Part shown: in pieces, positions 42,054 through 50,919 of the stretch
How the letters are laid out: each line of letters starts with the position of its first letter
How positions within the stretch are numbered: the first letter of the stretch is position 1
NCBI GenBank assembly: GCA_963744515.1
Contig: CAVUTN010000008.1
Location: forward strand, 22,172-86,171
DNA: 64,000 bases
Source of the DNA: an uncultured Actinomycetes bacterium
Lineage (GTDB): Bacteria > Actinomycetota > UBA4738 > HRBIN12
Reading direction: 5' to 3'
Notes under the pieces: generated by a model
What the model saw: only the letters and a program-made list of their open reading frames with translations
Databases searched by the model: none
Told to the model about the DNA's origin: nothing
Made by a program: the position numbers and the translations under genes

Positions 42054-43083
<1,030 letters not shown>

Positions 43084-43429: not shown

Positions 43430-44136
43430 TCACAGCCCCGCCAGCTTGGCGAGCCCGTTGATCTTCAGCAGGACGAACCGCGGCCGTCGCGCTCGACGAA
43501 GCCGCGGCGCTGGAAGTCGGACAGGATCCGCGTCACGTTCTCTCGGCTGCCCCCGCACAGGCTCGCCAGGTCCGCATGGGTCACGACCGAGGGCACGAGG
43601 AGCGCCGTCCGGCGGGAGCTCGTCGAGCGAGGGTGAGACGAGCTGGAGGAGACGCTTGGCGACCCGGCCCTTCAGATCGAGATAGAGGAGGTCCTCGACG
43701 AAGGCCTCATGTGATTGCACCTGGCGAGCCAGCGCTCGCAGGAGCGCCCTGGAGGCCGACGCCTGCCCGTTGACGAACTCCAGGAACGTCTCCGAGGGCA
43801 CGACCCAGACCGAGGATTCCTCTCGAGACGAGGGCGGACGCGGTTCTCGGCATGTCCCCCAGCACGCCGAGTTCGCCGAAGAACTGTGGGGAGTCCAGGG
43901 TTGCATGGAGCTGTCGTTGCCCGTTCGCAGAGGCCGAGCTGATCTCCACCCGCCCATCTGATCAGGAAGAACACCTCCGGCGAGGGATCTCCCTGATGGA
44001 ACAGGTAGGTGCCGCGCCGGTAGCTCCGGGTGTTTCCCCGCTCCGCCAGTGCGCCGATCACCTCGGGCGGGGTGCCCGCGAACAGGGGCGTGCGCGCCAT
44101 CATCGCCTCGAGCTCGGACGCCACCGCCCTCCCCAT
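43430..44136 (-). CDS. Crp/Fnr family transcriptional regulator (several frameshifts)
   Basis: YLFHQGDPS, FFGELGVLGDMPRTASA cNMP pocket, DLKGRVAKRLL, THADLASLCGGSRENVTRIL HTH. Confidence 0.9.
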
Positions 44137-44182: not shown

Positions 44183-44216
44183 GAACGAGACCCGGCCCGA
44201 GGGCCGGGTCTCGTTC
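44183..44216 (-). terminator. Perfect 15-bp stem-loop after the Lys-rich peptide gene
   Basis: GAACGAGACCCGGCC-CGAG-GGCCGGGTCTCGTTC. Confidence 0.75.
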
Positions 44217-44221
44217 GAAGG

Positions 44222-44361
44222 TCAGTGGTGACGCCTACTCTGCCCTTCTTCTTGGACTTCTTGAGCCGCTTCAGACTCTTCTTCTCCACGCGGGCTGCCG
44301 TGTCGGTGCTCGACGTCTTCGTCGACGATGCGGCCTTCGGAGTGATCTTCTTGTCCGCCAC
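44222..44361 (-). CDS. Small Lys/Ser/Thr-rich peptide (about 46 aa if one G is restored at ~44243)
   Basis: Strong RBS GGAGGTGA before GTG 44361; MADKKITPKAASSTKTSSTDTAARVEKKSLKRLKKSKKKG; a TGA at 44222 just before the hairpin becomes in frame with a 1-nt homopolymer correction. Confidence 0.65.
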
Positions 44362-44454: not shown

Positions 44455-44517
44455 TGTGCTGCGCGTCACGCGTTCTCCCGTGACCCCCGTCACCACATGA
44501 GAGTGACGCACGTCACA
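44455..44517. promoter_or_regulatory. Three tandem Crp-type boxes upstream of the peptide gene
   Basis: TGTGC-N6-TCACG (44455-44470), CGTGA-N6-TCACC (44479-44494), AGTGA-N6-TCACA (44502-44517). Confidence 0.7.
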
Positions 44518-44731
44518 TTTCCTGATCGAGCTCGGGGAGGGCGAGGGGGTCCGGTCGCGGGGAGCAGGCGCCACAGAACAGGGCGTCCTCGACGATGAGG
44601 GCCTGCGTGACGTCACGGGACCGGAAGAGCTCGAGAACGAACGGCAGCGTTTCCACGTGATCGGCGCAGATGCCCCGTCCGCAGAATCGGCAGCTTCCCA
44701 CCGCCGTCTTCCGGCAGTGCCAGCAATCCAT
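44513..44731 (-). CDS. Small Cys-rich zinc-finger protein (B-box-like)
   Basis: MDCWHC...CRFCGRGICADH...FCGAC; RBS AAGGA before ATG. Confidence 0.75.
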   Translation of the reverse strand: MDCWHCRKTAVGSCRFCGRGICADHVETLPFVLELFRSRDVTQALIVEDALFCGACSPRPDPLALPELDQEM

Positions 44732-44752: not shown

Positions 44753-46926
44753 TCAGTGCTGCGAGGTTCTGCCTACGGTGACCGCCTGTGCAAGCGAGCC
44801 ACGCCGGAAGGCACCCGCAACGACCTGATCGAATCCCTCTGCGTCGAGCCTGAAGACGCGCGTGGGGGTCCGGGCGATCACGGTCGCGGTCCTGGGCACG
44901 TCCGCGAGCAGTGCGACCTCGCCGAAGTGGCTTCCGGGTCCCAGGGTGTTGACGACCTGCCCGTCACGGATCACCTCGACCTGCCCGGTCCCGATCACGT
45001 AGAAGGCATCACCCGGTTGACCCTGCTCCACGAAGACCTCACCGGGGGCGACGTTCAGCCATCGTCCGTGGTCGAGGATCATGGCGATCTCGGTCGAGCC
45101 GAGTGAGGCGAACGGCGGAAGCCCGCGGAGCTCCGCGGCTTGCTGCAAGCGTCGGCTGGAATTCGGGAACGTGCACCATGTCCGACAGGAGCCGGTCGAA
45201 GGTGCTTTCGTCCACCTCGAACAGCTGCGCATCCGTGGTGGGGCGCACGGTCGCGGCCCGGGGGGCACCGTCGATCAACCCGAGCTCGCCGAACGTGTCG
45301 CCCGGCGCGAGGGTACGGATCACTCGCTCCTTCCCGGTTTCGAGATCCTCCTCGAGGACCTCCAGGCTCCCGGTGCGAACGATGAAGAAGGCATCCGGTC
45401 GATCCCCCTGCCGGAAGACCGGCTTGCCCGCAGGGTACCCCCTCAGGTTCACGCGGCCGGCGATATCCGAGAGCACGTCCTCGGGGAGGTCGTCGAACAT
45501 CGCCGACCGGTCGAGCAGCTCGGCGGCTTCCACACGCCACCGGGTCTGGAGCCGGAAGCGTACCTTGTCGAGGAGGCTCATCACCTTCTTCTTCGCCGCG
45601 CGCGCGAGCGCGATCAGCCCACGCAGGATCGGGCCCGCGATGAACAGTCCGAGCACGACGAGGAGCGCCTTGCCGATGACGCCCCCATCCCACAACTCCC
45701 GGATCAGTCCTCCGAAGATCGTTTCCCAGAAGAAGATCGACGTCCAGAGGCAGAACACCGTGAAGGCGATGCCGACGATCGCGTAGGCGGCCAGGCCGAC
45801 CTCCTGCTTCGTGATGCGCTCCCGTCCCCGGATCTTGCGCCATAGGTCGTAGCGGATGAACTGCAGCGAGCGTGGCCTCAGGTCCGGTACCTGGATCAGA
45901 TCCGCCAGGATGTAGTACCCGTCGAGCTCGAGGAGCGGTACCAGGTTCAGGAAGATCACGAAGTAGTTGATGACCGCCCACGTGAAGAGGAAGGGTGCGG
46001 CCGGCGACTCGGGGAACGCCCAGAGGTAGATCGAAGCGAAGGCCGACACGACGAGTTCCGCGAACGGGCCCGCGGCCGACTGCACGATCCGCTTGCCCCG
46101 GTCCAGCATGAGGGAGTCCGAAGCCTCGACGAAGAAGGCCGGGGACCCGAAGTAGATCATGAAGCCGGCACTCTTGATCTTCCGCCCCTGGTGAACGAGA
46201 ACGACCGCATGACCGAGCTCGTGCACGAACGTCAGGATGTAGTCCATGCCGAGCAGGATCAGCGTCTGGGCCGCGGGAGAGTCGCCCCCGAGATCGAAGC
46301 GATGGCTCTGCGTAGACGGCCACGAACGCCACGAGCCCCAGGACGGCAAGCACGAGCGCGGCGACCGCGACCGCCGGGATGAAGAAGAACCGCAGCCCAT
46401 GACGATAGAGCCAGGCGACGAGCTTGTGGGCTCCCGTCCAGTCGATCGAGAGCGTCTTGGCGAACTCTCGGGCCTTCGTCCTCGCCATCGTCGTGGGATG
46501 GGCCGCTCGCCGGACGATCTCCGTCGTGTCGACGTAATGCTCGGTCAGGAAGTTCCCGATCCGAAGCTGTCGGACCAGATCCACGACCCCGTCGAGCGCG
46601 AGATCGCCGGACTCCTGGAAGGACTCGACGACGATCTCCTTCACGGTCCGGGTCCCGTCCATGAGCGCGAGGAGCCTCGACGTCCTCGGGCCGGAGCTGG
46701 TAGTGCACGAGGTCCGTCGGGTTCGCGATCATGGCGTAGTCGTTGCCCCACCGGAGTTTGAACGCCTTCACCTCGATGTCGTCACGCAGGTGCGGGCGAT
46801 ACTCGGCCGGGTCCACCCGGTTCGCGAGGTCGGACCACAGTCCGCGGCCGTCGTGCTCGCGCGTGTCCCGATCGAGCTTCGCCGCGACGGTCGCGTAGAG
46901 CCTCCTCCGGAGCTGCGAAGGGTCAT
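44753..46926 (-). CDS. PqqD/RRE-like domain + M50 (site-2) metallopeptidase + two cNMP-binding domains (frameshifts near 46900, 46680, 46320, 45130)
   Basis: LLALMDGTRTVKEI (RRE-like), HELGH, AAGPF, NLVPLLELDG, GELGLIDGAPRAATV, GEVALLADVPRTATV. Confidence 0.82.
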
Positions 46927-47623
46927 GTGTCGGAGGCGCGACTCGCGCTCGGCCCGCAGGCGCTGATCGATCGTGCCGTAGAGCGAGAGCCGCGCTGGGG
47001 GCCGGCGCTTGGAAGCGAAGAGATTCCCGATCACGCCGCCGGCAAGGAGCGCGATCAGGATCGCCGCGATCACCGTCTCCCAGGTGATCCCGCCACTCTC
47101 GGGCGCTGCCAGCGACCGGGTGACCTCGGCCGACTCGCCGAAGATCGTCGACGACCCCGAGGACGAACCGAGCATCCTCCGGGATCGTCTTCACCACGTG
47201 CGCATCGACCTCGAAGGAGATGTTGGCCCCACCGGTGGTCACGATCACGTCGGCGCCGCTCACCCGCAGGTACGCGCTCGTCGCCACCGCGCCGGTGCCG
47301 ACGATGAGGTCCTGTTCGCCGACGATCAGCTTGTTGTCCTCGATGTCGAACCGCAGCTGATCGAGCTCCTGGTTCCCGGACATGATCGACGCCTCGAGGA
47401 GGTGGAGCGCCTGCCACCCACCGGGCATCGTCCCGTCGACACGGATCGTGAGCGTCGAGCCCGACGCGAGGGCACCCGACACCTGGCCGTTGACGCTCGG
47501 ACCGCTCGTCGGGCTCGGCGAGGTGGACTGCGCCGAGGCGGGACCCGCGGTCACGATCACCGCCACGAGGGCGGCGAGCAGCAACGACCCCTGCAACGCC
47601 GGTCGACGGATCACGGAGCGCAT
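46923..47623 (-). CDS. Exported protein with C-terminal membrane anchor (frameshift near 47140)
   Basis: Signal peptide ending GPASA, beta-rich core, TM VIAAILIALLAGGVIGNLFA followed by SKRR; ATGA overlap with the M50 gene. Confidence 0.7.
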
Positions 47624-47650: not shown

Positions 47651-47689
47651 CGTGACGGAGGTCACCCCCCGTCCGTGCGCGACGTCACC
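47651..47689. promoter_or_regulatory. Two tandem Crp-type boxes in a divergent intergenic region
   Basis: CGTGA-N6-TCACC (47651-47666), CGTGC-N6-TCACC (47674-47689), 23 bp apart. Confidence 0.65.
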
Positions 47690-47758: not shown

Positions 47759-47929
47759 ATGCTGAGCGGAGAGATGGCCCGGTACCAGATCGGCGACCGC
47801 GTTCGCGAGGCCGAGGCCGACCGCCTTGCCCGGTCGACCCGCAGGAGCAGGGCCGCGGACTCGCGGGGCGTGGCCCGGCGCATCGGTCGTGCCGCCCTGG
47901 CGGCCGCCACCTGGCCCATCAAGCACTAG
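47759..47929 (+). CDS. 56-aa small protein missing from the ORF track
   Basis: RBS GAGGAGGAGG; MLSGEMARYQIGDRVREAEADRLARSTRRSRAADSRGVARRIGRAALAAATWPIKH*. Confidence 0.7.
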   Translation: MLSGEMARYQIGDRVREAEADRLARSTRRSRAADSRGVARRIGRAALAAATWPIKH

Positions 47930-48088: not shown

Positions 48089-50047
48089 TCAGGCGCCACC
48101 CGAGGAGAGGTTCTGGATCTCCAACGGCGGCAGGCGATCCGCCGGCTCGAACCCCAGGATCGTGCCGTAGAACGTGAGCTCGGCCGACAGTCCGCGCGAG
48201 ATGTTCTCCACCTTGCGGAACCCGTGCTGCTCGCCTTCGAACAGGAGGTAGGCGTATGGCAACCCCCGGTTCTCCAGGGCCTTGACGATGACCTCCGCCT
48301 GCGCGGGCGGGACCACCTCGTCCTCGTCGCCCTGCAGGATCAGCAGCGGGCTGGACAGGAGCTCGGCGTGCCGGACCGGCGAGCGTTCGGCCCACAGGTC
48401 GGCCGCCTCGGGCCACGGACCCACCAGGAGGTCGAGGTACTTGGACTCGAACTTGTGGGTGGTCTCGGCGAACGGCTCGAGATCCGAGACGCCGAAGTAG
48501 CTCGAGCCCGTCGCGAACGCGTCCCGGAACGTGAGCGCGCACAGCGTCGTCCATCCCCCCGCGCTCCCACCGGAGATCATCAGCCGCTCGGGGTCCGCGA
48601 GACCCCGCTCGACGAGGTGCTCGGCGGCCGCCACCGCGTCGTCGACGTCGGCCACGCCCCACCGGCCGTACAGGCTCTCGCGGAAGGCCCGGCCGTAGCC
48701 GGTGCTGCCGCGGTAGTTCACGTCGACACACGCGATCCCGCGGCTCGTGAAGAACTGCAGCTCGAGGTCCAGCTCCGGCCACACCTCGGACGTCGGTCCC
48801 CCGTGGACGTGCACGAGCAGCGGTGGGCGTTCGCCGTCGGGGGCGGTGGCGACCGCGTTCGTCGGCGGGTAGTAGTGCGCGAACGCGGTCTGGCCCTCGG
48901 TGGTCGGGAACTCGATCGGTTCGGGCACGGACAGGTACCCGGGGTCGAACCCCACAACGTCGTTCGCGCGCAGGACCTCGACCGCGCGCGTCGAGAAGTC
49001 GAGCGACACGACCTGCGTCGGCGTGGTCGGGCCGCCGGCGATGAACGCCAACCGCTGCCCCGAGACGCTGAGGGCCGCCTCGAAGGTCGCGTACGGCAGG
49101 TCCAGATCCAGGAGCTCTCGGGTCGTCGGATCGAGCAGCGCGAGGTGGTGGATGCCCCGCTCGCGGTACGCGCAGACGATCCTCCCGTCCGAGAGGAAGC
49201 CGTACGACGCGTAGCCGAACAGCCACATCGGCACGGCGAACTCGGCCGACATCGGGGCCAGGTTCGTAAGCTCACCGTCGGGCCCCTCCCGGTAGAGGTT
49301 CCACCAGTCGGTGCGATCGGAGACGAAGGTCAACGAGCCGTCGGGCGCCCAAGCCGGTTGGAAGATCGACTCGCGGTCACCGCCCGCGACCGCGCGCGAC
49401 GCGCCCGCCGATCCGTCGGACGCCACGTCGACCACGGCGAGCTCGCTGCCGTCCCAGGGCATCCGCGGGAAGTCCCAGGCGATGAACGCGACTCGCCCGC
49501 CCTCGGGCGACCAACGCGGGAACGCGTAGAAGTCCCGCCCGGATGCGAGCGTCGACGTCGACGATCCGTCGGCGGCGATCGCGACGAGCTCGTTGACGGG
49601 TGGCCCCTGGCCTTCGTGACGTTCGTGGACCGCCGCGATCCACCGGCCGTCGGCCGACACGTCCATATCGGCGTAGCGCAGACCGCGCGGGGTCGCGGGT
49701 TCGGGGGTGATCGCGGTGGGTTCGCCGCCGAGCTCCTGCCGGTACAACCGTTGGTCCTCGAGGTTGGCGAAGTAGGTGGTCGTCCCCCAGACGGCGTACG
49801 AACCGCCGCCGTACTCGTGCACCAGCGTCCGAACCGAGACCCCGGCCGGCGTCACGTCGAACGGCTCCCCGCCCGGATCCGAACGCACGACGACGGAACG
49901 ACCGCGTTCCTGGGGCCGGAGCTCGAGCCACGTGGTCGCGTCGCCGACCGCCCTCGTCTCGCTCAGCACCACCGAGGCCTCCGCGGCGCGATCGGCGGTG
50001 ATCGGCGACGGCCAGGACCCGTACGGGATGCGTTGCGCGTCGCTCAT
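48089..50047 (-). CDS. S9 family (prolyl oligopeptidase/acylaminoacyl) peptidase
   Basis: PYGSWPSPI, HGGPT, NYRGSTGYG, GGSAGG, QGDEDEVV, GEQHGF. Confidence 0.93.
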   Translation of the reverse strand: MSDAQRIPYGSWPSPITADRAAEASVVLSETRAVGDATTWLELRPQERGRSVVVRSDPGGEPFDVTPAGVSVRTLVHEYGGGSYAVWGTTTYFANLEDQRLYRQELGGEPTAITPEPATPRGLRYADMDVSADGRWIAAVHERHEGQGPPVNELVAIAADGSSTSTLASGRDFYAFPRWSPEGGRVAFIAWDFPRMPWDGSELAVVDVASDGSAGASRAVAGGDRESIFQPAWAPDGSLTFVSDRTDWWNLYREGPDGELTNLAPMSAEFAVPMWLFGYASYGFLSDGRIVCAYRERGIHHLALLDPTTRELLDLDLPYATFEAALSVSGQRLAFIAGGPTTPTQVVSLDFSTRAVEVLRANDVVGFDPGYLSVPEPIEFPTTEGQTAFAHYYPPTNAVATAPDGERPPLLVHVHGGPTSEVWPELDLELQFFTSRGIACVDVNYRGSTGYGRAFRESLYGRWGVADVDDAVAAAEHLVERGLADPERLMISGGSAGGWTTLCALTFRDAFATGSSYFGVSDLEPFAETTHKFESKYLDLLVGPWPEAADLWAERSPVRHAELLSSPLLILQGDEDEVVPPAQAEVIVKALENRGLPYAYLLFEGEQHGFRKVENISRGLSAELTFYGTILGFEPADRLPPLEIQNLSSGGA

Positions 50048-50919
50048 CCGCGCCAACGGCCGACGAGCACGCGCGTCACCTTGAACCCGCGATCCATCGT
50101 GCTCCGCACGTCCTCGAACCCGTTGCGTCGCAACACGGACGCGACCGCTCGCGCACGGTCGGGGCTGACCTCGATCAGCAGCCATCCGCCCGGTTTCAGC
50201 CACCGGGGACCCTCGGACGCCGACCGCCCGACGAGCCCGAGCCCGTCCAGGCTCTTGTCGGTGAGCGTGTGGACCGGCTCGAACCGCCGGATCTCCACGG
50301 GGAGCTCGTGGAGCTCGTCGCGAGCCACGTACGGCGGATGCAGGGTGATCACGTCCACGCGCCCGTGCAGGTCCTTCGGCAGACCGCCGAACAGGTCGCC
50401 CTTGGCGAACGTGGCGCGCAGCCGGAGCAGCTCCGCGTTCTCCCGCGCGACGCGGACGGCCGTGAGCGAGATGTCGGTGCCGAAGACCCGCACCCCCGGC
50501 ACCTCGTTCGCGATCGCCAGCGCGACGGTGCCGCCGCCGGTCGCGAGGTCGACCGCGACGGGGCGGCGTCGCCCGCGGAGCCTCCGCACCGCCTGCTCCG
50601 CGAGGTACTCGGTCGAATCGCGCGGCACGAACACCCCGGGCTTCGCCGCGATCTCCAACCCTCGGAAGACGGCGTGGCCCGTGATGAGCTGGACCGGTTC
50701 GCCGGACGCTCGGCGGGCGATCATCCGATCGAAGCGCCGGCGGACGTTCGCTGGGACCTCCGCGTTCGGAGCGACGCGGTCGACACCGAGCGCGTAGCCG
50801 AGCAGCTCGTCGGCCTCGATCTCCTCGCGATCGCGTTGCCAGTGATCGATCGCCGTGGACGCCTTGAGCGTCTCGACGGCATCGGTGAGGACCTCCTTCG
50901 CCTTCCTTGGCGCCTTCAT
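50044..50919 (-). CDS. HemK/PrmC-family N5-glutamine methyltransferase homolog (HPPY variant)
   Basis: RRASGEPVQLITG, VFVPRDSTE, VDLATGGG, TLHPPY, FEP, LKPGGWL. Confidence 0.85.
   Translation of the reverse strand: MKAPRKAKEVLTDAVETLKASTAIDHWQRDREEIEADELLGYALGVDRVAPNAEVPANVRRRFDRMIARRASGEPVQLITGHAVFRGLEIAAKPGVFVPRDSTEYLAEQAVRRLRGRRRPVAVDLATGGGTVALAIANEVPGVRVFGTDISLTAVRVARENAELLRLRATFAKGDLFGGLPKDLHGRVDVITLHPPYVARDELHELPVEIRRFEPVHTLTDKSLDGLGLVGRSASEGPRWLKPGGWLLIEVSPDRARAVASVLRRNGFEDVRSTMDRGFKVTRVLVGRWRG

Follow-up and report, generated by a model that had tools for sequence, protein, structure and literature searches.

The locus and its protease gene

The stretch of DNA analysed here, referred to as the window, covers 64 kb of about 70% G+C from an uncultured Actinomycetes bacterium (assembly GCA_963744515.1, contig CAVUTN010000008.1) and carries on its minus strand, at positions 44753 to 46926, a gene for a protease of the M50 family. 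The evidence supports a product in which a zinc protease embedded in the membrane carries a peptide-docking domain at its N-terminus and two cyclic-nucleotide sensors at its C-terminus. The gene belongs to a conserved cassette in which it is preceded by a gene for an exported protein and followed by genes for a zinc-ribbon protein, a small basic peptide and a Crp-type regulator.

In the window the protease is read in five frame segments that join at about 46906/46900, 46674, 46310 and 45149. A tblastn search with an intact orthologue (P0001, 723 aa) covered residues 10-723 in four minus-strand pieces lying in three frames; the start, MTLRSS at 46926, lies beyond that coverage, and the stop is at 44753. 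The gene measures 2174 nt in the window versus 2172 nt in its intact form, and the reconstructed protein aligns with P0001 from end to end at 95% amino acid identity, the separate segments being 91-94% identical. When the joined protein was used as query, intact homologues of 716-725 aa were retrieved, at most 95% identical and all annotated as M50 plus cyclic nucleoside monophosphate (cNMP) binding. Intact orthologues are also carried by three contigs (L001-L003) with about 91% nucleotide identity to the window. An earlier sequence-only reading had placed here a protein of about 720 aa in need of reconstruction, and its coordinates, length and call for reconstruction proved correct. The sequence features it quoted were each located on the minus strand where it had put them, including YAMIANPTDLVHYQL at 46738-46694, LLALMDGTRTVKEI at 46674-46633, GELGLIDGAPRAAT at 45290-45249 and GEVALLADVPRTAT at 44923-44882.

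Domain architecture

A full-length model was built with AlphaFold2 from the intact orthologue and 119 homologues and reached a mean predicted local distance difference test score (pLDDT) of 78. The central part of the protein, about residues 184-440 (45606-46377, minus strand), is predicted from profiles, hydropathy and this model to be a site-2-type zinc metalloprotease with six transmembrane (TM) segments and an active site facing the cytoplasm. Peptidase_M50 (PF02163) matches the window's own frame segment with 30.3 bits (cut-off 27.2) and is found in the precomputed annotation of all 120 listed homologues. The best curated match of the core is the NCBIfam model daptide_HExxH (NF041824; 127 bits, E 9e-37, cut-off 300), and the second best is the YydH/LiaK model NF058609 (49.8 bits, cut-off 225). 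Both zinc motifs are present, HELGH at 46223-46209 and NLVPLLELDG at 45947-45918, the second of which follows the NxxPxxxLDG pattern that in site-2 proteases provides an Asp ligand from a later TM helix, and residues H235, E236 and H239 as well as N327, P330, L334, D335 and G336 are invariant in the 119 homologues. Model and hydropathy agree on hydrophobic helices at residues 186-204, 217-245 (which contains HELGH), 283-304, 313-331 (leading into LDG), 376-400 and 416-434. The six TM segments and the strongly basic loop 341-375 lead to a topology in which the N-terminal domain, the active site and the C-terminal sensors would all be cytoplasmic.

The N-terminal domain, about residues 45-125 (46552-46795, minus strand), is modelled as a cytoplasmic winged helix of the type found in PqqD and in recognition elements (RREs) of enzymes for ribosomally made, post-translationally modified peptides (RiPPs). 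Its beta3-alpha3 fold is made of strands 52-56, 64-69 and 74-78 and helices 80-88, 95-106 and 111-123, with pLDDT values of about 80-88; modelled alone, the domain reached 80. In a Foldseek search of the PDB, the best matches of this isolated model were RREs (TbiB1, TruD, TfuB1, TigE, CteB, SuiB and MibB), with TbiB1 in complex with a leader peptide on top (probability 1.00, TM score 0.54-0.65). The full-length model returned PKA/PKG-type matches only, because the C-terminal pair of domains dominates the comparison. At the sequence level, the window's own domain and its close homologues had no significant match to PqqD (PF05402), and the NCBIfam model ScmD reached E 0.008. Among 40 more diverse sequences of this domain family, 20 matched PqqD (best E 4.9e-6), and a profile from a broader alignment placed PaaA (E 0.02) and TfuB1 on top when run against the PDB. 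The modelling shows an RRE/PqqD fold, which RiPP enzymes use for leader docking.

Behind the membrane core, a long helix runs in the model from the sixth TM segment into a pair of cyclic-nucleotide-binding (CNB) domains. Domain A (45171-45518, minus strand; pocket FGELGLIDGAPRAATV) and domain B (44804-45136, minus strand; pocket FGEVALLADVPRTATV) match PF00027 with 78 and 79.8 bits, respectively, above a cut-off of 27.5. Their phosphate-binding cassettes, FGELGL..PRAATV in A and FGEVALL..PRTATV in B, follow the pattern G-E...R-[AT]-A; F545, G546, E547, R556 and A558 of domain A and G668, E669, R678, T679 and A680 of domain B are invariant in the 119 homologues. Foldseek relates domain A to PKA regulatory subunits, and the pair superposes on Bcy1 (3of1) with a TM score of 0.73, a root-mean-square deviation of 4.8 Å and 32% identity over 252 columns. 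Alignment and model together show a PKA-R-like pair with complete phosphate-binding cassettes. Cyclic AMP (cAMP) would be a likelier ligand than cGMP, given the Crp partner of the cassette and the many cyclases of the organism. A count of 28 matches to the class III cyclase domain PF00211 was obtained in the genome (e.g. contig 3:139539-140063), a very large cyclic-nucleotide repertoire for 2.3 Mb.

The domains named in the sequence-only reading have therefore held up. The RRE-like N-terminus models as a winged helix, and the Foldseek comparison it had proposed for this region ended on RREs; the zinc motifs of site-2 proteases (S2Ps) are kept, and the tandem cNMP domains, with their intact G-E...R pockets and their PKA-like arrangement, are present in all homologues.

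A conserved cassette with a peptide gene behind Crp boxes

The neighbourhood was surveyed at 83 loci, and peptides and Crp boxes were counted over 82 loci. The gene order is fixed: the exported protein comes first, then the protease and the zinc-ribbon protein, and about 380 nt of gap separate the latter from the Crp regulator. The zinc-ribbon gene (44513-44731, minus strand) starts 21 nt after the protease stop and encodes a Cys-rich protein of 72 aa. Its counterparts, found in 82 of the 83 loci at about 20 nt past the protease stop, are 66-100% identical, and the similarity to Pfam DUF2180 is below the cut-off (E 3e-4). The zinc-ribbon protein appears to be an obligate partner of the protease, perhaps an adaptor or a second client.

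The gap contains the gene of a small basic peptide (44222-44361, minus strand), which starts with GTG at 44361 after the ribosome-binding site GGAGGTGA and encodes MADKKITPKAASSTKTSSTDTAARVEKKSLKRLKKSKKKG..., its end being blurred by a 1-nt insertion near 44240. A homologous peptide of 35-58 aa was found in this gap in 77 of 82 loci. The N-terminus MA(E/D)KK(I/V)(T/S)PKA, for example MAEKKITPKA, is followed by a short Ser/Thr/Ala/Lys stretch, then by AATRVTKK and finally by a highly basic, lineage-specific tail that is often a short tandem repeat (KRQT, QKV, KKLSH, KATH, KS, TRVSKA, KSTRA, KRDS or KMKT). Two peptide genes occur at L045, L047, L052, L057 and L067. A GC-rich hairpin of 15-16 bp (44184-44217, minus strand; -39.8 kcal/mol, z -6.7) lies after the peptide gene and is a probable terminator or attenuator; a simple scan for T-run terminators did not list it, because its T-run is weak.

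Three phased Crp-type boxes of the form GTGA-N6-TCAC, 23-24 bp apart, stand ahead of the peptide gene just past the zinc-ribbon stop (44457-44516), those at 44503-44516 and 44480-44493 being exact. The whole 64 kb contains four exact boxes, versus 0.93 expected overall, and three of the four are at this locus. Over the 82 loci the box density amounts to 7.5 per kb at this position versus 0.078 per kb elsewhere, an enrichment of about 96-fold. Another Crp-type box (47652-47665) heads the operon, lying upstream of the gene for the exported protein, and many loci have a box in the corresponding place. The Crp/Fnr-family regulator itself (43430-44136, minus strand; 234 aa in relatives, PF00027 and HTH_Crp_2) is present in 81 of 83 loci and is broken in the window at 43961, 43829, 43600 and 43480.

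The exported protein of about 230 aa (46936-47623, minus strand; broken here at 47144 and 46939) was detected in 41 of the 83 loci. Its signal peptide is followed by a beta-rich ectodomain, with a TM helix and a basic tail in the C-terminal part, and in intact relatives its stop overlaps the protease start. In P0068 and P0089 the TM helix and basic tail are fused in frame to the protease N-terminus, which suggests a physical partnership. At several loci the spacing upstream of the protease is too short to hold a gene for the ectodomain. Pfam and NCBIfam scans assigned no curated family to the peptides, the zinc-ribbon protein or the exported protein.

Other genes are found around the cassette. 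A conserved open reading frame (ORF) of 56 aa (MLSGEMARYQIGDRVREAEA...WPIKH; 47759-47929, plus strand) is divergent from the exported-protein gene, with the box at 47652-47665 between the two; it occurs in 32 of the 83 loci and matches no family. Further upstream, an S9-family peptidase (48089-50203, minus strand) forms one intact frame of 704 aa, with no indel in 2.1 kb; at L002:4017-4424 only a 135-aa remnant is left, in which the N-terminal end is joined to the C-terminal one and which looks like the product of an internal deletion. On the other side, MoaA (GTP 3',8-cyclase; 42054-43083, plus strand) is convergent with the cassette and has a frameshift near 42405-42420. Finally, at L029, L035 and L037 a gene that looks HtrA-like by sequence lies between the zinc-ribbon and peptide genes, about 300-1500 nt past the zinc-ribbon stop, and the Crp boxes stay with the peptide gene.

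Mosaic alleles

The cassette differs from its flanks in its relationship to other genomes. Compared with L061, a block from about 46960 to about 43760 is 60-71% identical while the flanks are 85-91% identical; compared with L002, the same block is 92-95% identical and the flanks 80-90%. This block takes in the genes for the protease, zinc-ribbon protein and peptide and, of crp, the half that encodes cNMP binding; the break within crp separates a divergent cNMP-binding domain from a conserved DNA-binding domain. In the genomes with the closest MoaA (91-95% identity: L049, L060 and L061) the protease alleles are only 54-57% identical, whereas genomes with a more distant MoaA (80-83%) have alleles that are 66-71% identical. 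The peptide tails also differ between the two allele classes, EKKSLKR... in one and (QKV)n in the other. From these comparisons the cassette appears to behave as an exchangeable allele, with classes that carry different peptide repeat tails.

Family and distribution

The wider family was searched with the RRE and M50 part only, in a set of about 15 billion proteins clustered at 50% identity, each cluster being represented by one sequence. This gave 9,670 relatives at E <= 1e-3, of which 387 at E <= 1e-30. Ten distant members (444-1151 aa, 29-45% identity) were scanned with Pfam and seven had two CNB domains; these seven are forms of about 720 aa and of about 1,030-1,150 aa, and two show a sub-threshold PqqD match. 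Named relatives belong to Actinomycetota, Solirubrobacterales, Anaerolineales and Candidatus Edwardsbacteria, with Chloroflexota and other phyla represented, and all of them come from metagenome-assembled genomes with automatic annotation. Among species-representative genomes, 139 stretches encode a relative, and all 80 of those listed are from uncultured bacteria.

In the window's class the gene is present in 155 of 201 sampled genomes and, within the same sample, in 84 of 109 high-quality genomes and in 52 of 65 genera. The M50 part is single-copy in the genome studied here. Within an uncultured order of soil Actinomycetota, the protease gene ranks as near-core and single-copy. Its product is best described as a member of a large uncharacterised family, the cNMP-sensor-bearing variant of RRE-dependent intramembrane leader peptidases. 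In the accessible literature we found no description of an M50 protease with cNMP domains or of their combination with an RRE.

A proposed mechanism and alternative clients

The best explanation, to which we give a probability of roughly 0.6, is that of a functional gene broken only in the assembly, whose product is an RRE-docked, cNMP-controlled M50 protease that cuts the basic peptide. In such a system cAMP from the many cyclases of the organism would act through Crp on the phased boxes and turn on the peptide gene. The same nucleotide would bind the CNB pair, and the long helix between TM6 and this pair would open or close access to the active site. The peptide would dock on the RRE by its conserved N-terminal segment, MAEKKI(T/S)PKA, and the M50 core would cut the peptide, so that its hypervariable polycationic tail is released, exported or destroyed. 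The peptide is a putative substrate, and it is the domain architecture that suggests direct gating by cAMP. For the family, cleavage of a small basic peptide controlled by cAMP is probable.

Several observations weigh against this explanation. The E-values of the Foldseek matches to RREs are marginal (3e-3 to 0.1), and the window's own N-terminal domain has no significant match to PqqD or to PDB sequences: nothing meaningful came from a phmmer search of the PDB with 175 aa or from a profile of close homologues run against it, and a Pfam scan of the domain and its close homologues gave no significant PqqD match. The M50 core scores below the curated cut-offs of both the daptide and the YydH/LiaK models. 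A canonical RiPP cluster was considered and rejected, since no modifying enzyme is conserved nearby and the downstream MoaA is a housekeeping gene on the opposite strand. Finally, the peptide is lysine-rich and (S/T)PK-like, its N-terminal K-K-I-(S/T)-P-K resembling the SPKK DNA-binding motifs of histone H1, and it could be merely a co-regulated nucleic-acid-binding miniprotein.

The enzyme could also be a classical S2P of regulated intramembrane proteolysis with a TM client. The most likely client would then be the exported protein encoded upstream, cut in its C-terminal TM helix and basic tail; the winged helix would serve docking or regulation in a generic way, and the peptide would be an unrelated member of the Crp regulon. 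TM segments are what classical S2Ps cut, and this view can draw on the overlap of the two genes, on the fusions of the TM-plus-tail to the protease and on the detection of the exported protein in about half of the loci. We nevertheless consider it unlikely. The exported protein was not found by tblastn in the remaining half of the loci, several of which lack the room for its gene, unlike the zinc-ribbon protein, the peptide and Crp, which are nearly always present, and a fusion points to a subunit rather than to a substrate. After removal of its signal peptide the protein would be type I (N-out), whereas the S2P clients known to us are type II. Moreover, the nearest curated M50 relatives are leader peptidases of soluble peptides and not RseP or SpoIVFB.

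It is slightly more doubtful still that the RRE client is the zinc-ribbon protein, acting like a soluble anti-sigma factor or anti-regulator that is released or destroyed, with the peptide only a co-regulated effector. This protein is the tightest-linked partner, in view of its near-constant presence, its short distance from the protease and its high conservation, and it is probably on the same transcript. Its conservation, however, extends over the whole length with no layout of leader and variable core, and it has no hydrophobic segment. It is the peptide that combines a conserved N-terminus with a hypervariable C-terminus, the typical pattern of RRE clients, and the Crp boxes belong to the peptide gene.

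Frame breaks in the assembled sequence

The assembled gene on the minus strand carries four frame-shifting indels, which were placed by DNA alignment to L001-L003 and by a hidden Markov model of third-position GC periodicity (GC3-HMM). The first (46900-46908; HMM junction 46916) is a net -1 relative to L002/L003. The others are 1-nt insertions, inside the RRE domain and away from any homopolymer (46674; junction 46673), after TM1 (46310-46311; junction 46309) and in the linker between CNB-A and CNB-B (45149-45150; junction 45146). The two methods agree within a few bases, except at the complex site near 46906, where the offset reaches about 10. Differences specific to the window relative to L001-L003 are nearly all single-base insertions outside homopolymers (47144, 46939, 46906, 46674, 46310, 45149, 44734, 44416, 44240, 44216, 43961, 43829 and 43600), and they strike every gene of the cassette block without singling out the protease.

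Junctions at which the frame changes on the same strand while the old frame stays open for more than 30 further codons were taken as frameshift-like. The GC3-HMM found 1,510 of them in the 2.30-Mb genome, that is 6.6 per 10 kb, on each of its 19 contigs. Run on homologous loci of 83 other assemblies (898 kb), this detector gave 0.62 per 10 kb. In the cassette (43.4-47.2 kb) the indel density is about three times the genome average, which fits assembler trouble in a strain-variable region. Compared frame by frame with L001, the protease gene has a ratio of nonsynonymous to synonymous substitution rates (dN/dS) of 0.14 and zero in-frame stops over 708 codons. Matches in the other sampled genomes have no internal stop, and most lie in a single open frame that fits the whole protein. 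The estimated completeness of the genome is only 58% (2.3 Mb, 19 contigs), a value that broken marker genes would give.

The intact orthologues, the dN/dS of 0.14 and the roughly 10-fold elevated junction rate throughout the genome make assembly errors the most likely origin of the frame breaks. A true pseudogene, with four genuine frameshift mutations and domains that the organism no longer produces as a single protein, has in its favour that the assembled sequence itself carries the indels, in the cassette about three times more densely than on average in the genome, but it is highly improbable, since a junction every 1.5 kb or so would break most genes, the dN/dS is low and no in-frame stop is present, the matches in other genomes are free of stops and mostly lie in one open frame, and bacterial mutation favours deletions, unlike the 1-nt insertions that make up nearly all of these differences. 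Programmed frameshifting and quadruplet decoding were also rejected, as the insertions share no common motif and the same defect affects neighbouring genes and all contigs. In practical terms, the gene breaks in the window are very probably assembly noise and not biology, and split-gene findings anywhere in this indel-ridden genome deserve distrust.

Possible significance

The usual control of intramembrane proteases is indirect, through an earlier site-1 cut or through inhibitor proteins, and a nucleotide sensor on the protease itself is to our knowledge limited to the CBS domains of SpoIVFB-type enzymes. Tentatively, and with less than even odds, the proteins described here might be intramembrane proteases on which a second messenger acts as a direct gate, the first of their kind. 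They would take part in a feed-forward loop in which cAMP-Crp transcribes the peptide and the same nucleotide licenses its cleavage or export, all within an exchangeable allele that may possibly serve soil actinobacteria as a pherotype-like or self/non-self signal made of cationic peptides. If true, this would be a new output of cyclic-nucleotide signalling and a new way of controlling peptide maturation, in a family uniting RRE, PKA-like sensor and M50 core that reaches about three quarters of the genomes of one uncultured actinobacterial lineage.

Comparison with known systems

Regulation by nucleotides has a precedent in SpoIVFB-type (group III) S2Ps, in which ATP binding to the CBS domain is needed for the cleavage of pro-sigma-K. 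Like the present protease, these enzymes have a cytoplasmic domain for nucleotide sensing behind an M50 core of six TM segments. They differ in that the sensor is a CBS domain and not a tandem CNB pair, in that the N-terminal RRE is found only here, and in the client, a membrane-associated pro-sigma factor there and presumably a small soluble peptide here; the Pfam M50 similarity of the protease is in addition weak (30 bits). The sensors themselves have the CNB-A/CNB-B order and fold of PKA and PKG regulatory subunits, and the PKA RI pocket FGELALIYGTPRAATV is close to the pocket of domain A. However, the regulatory subunit of PKA inhibits its kinase in trans, whereas the CNB pair described here is covalently joined to a membrane protease and has no inhibitor or pseudosubstrate segment.

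As for the cleavage of peptides, the M50 peptidases YydH, EpeP and LiaK process and possibly export a small ribosomal peptide during epipeptide maturation (PMC10885120). Like the present protein they are membrane M50 proteases, and their model (NF058609) is its second-best curated match. Nevertheless, the score stays under the cut-off, RRE and CNB domains are absent from YydH, and no radical-SAM epimerase partner is found at the locus.

A closer likeness is seen with MpaP, the daptide leader peptidase, an intramembrane S2P that has an RRE fused to its N-terminus and takes the leader off a small cytoplasmic precursor peptide (PMC10036551, Ren et al. 2023). Both enzymes are actinobacterial and have an N-terminal RRE on a site-2-type M50 core, and the daptide model is the best curated match, with a score that remains far under its cut-off. 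MpaP has about 380 aa and no cNMP-binding domains, unlike the 723-aa protease. Daptide clusters contain genes for decarboxylase, aminotransferase and methyltransferase enzymes, and their precursors have an ELExMEAP leader and a Thr at the C-terminus. This locus has none of these: its peptides lack a conserved C-terminal Thr, and the zinc-ribbon protein, the basic peptide, the exported protein and Crp are its only conserved neighbours. MpaP/DapP is thus the closest published relative: the fusion of an RRE to an S2P is not new, whereas the cNMP sensors and the Crp-wired peptide are.

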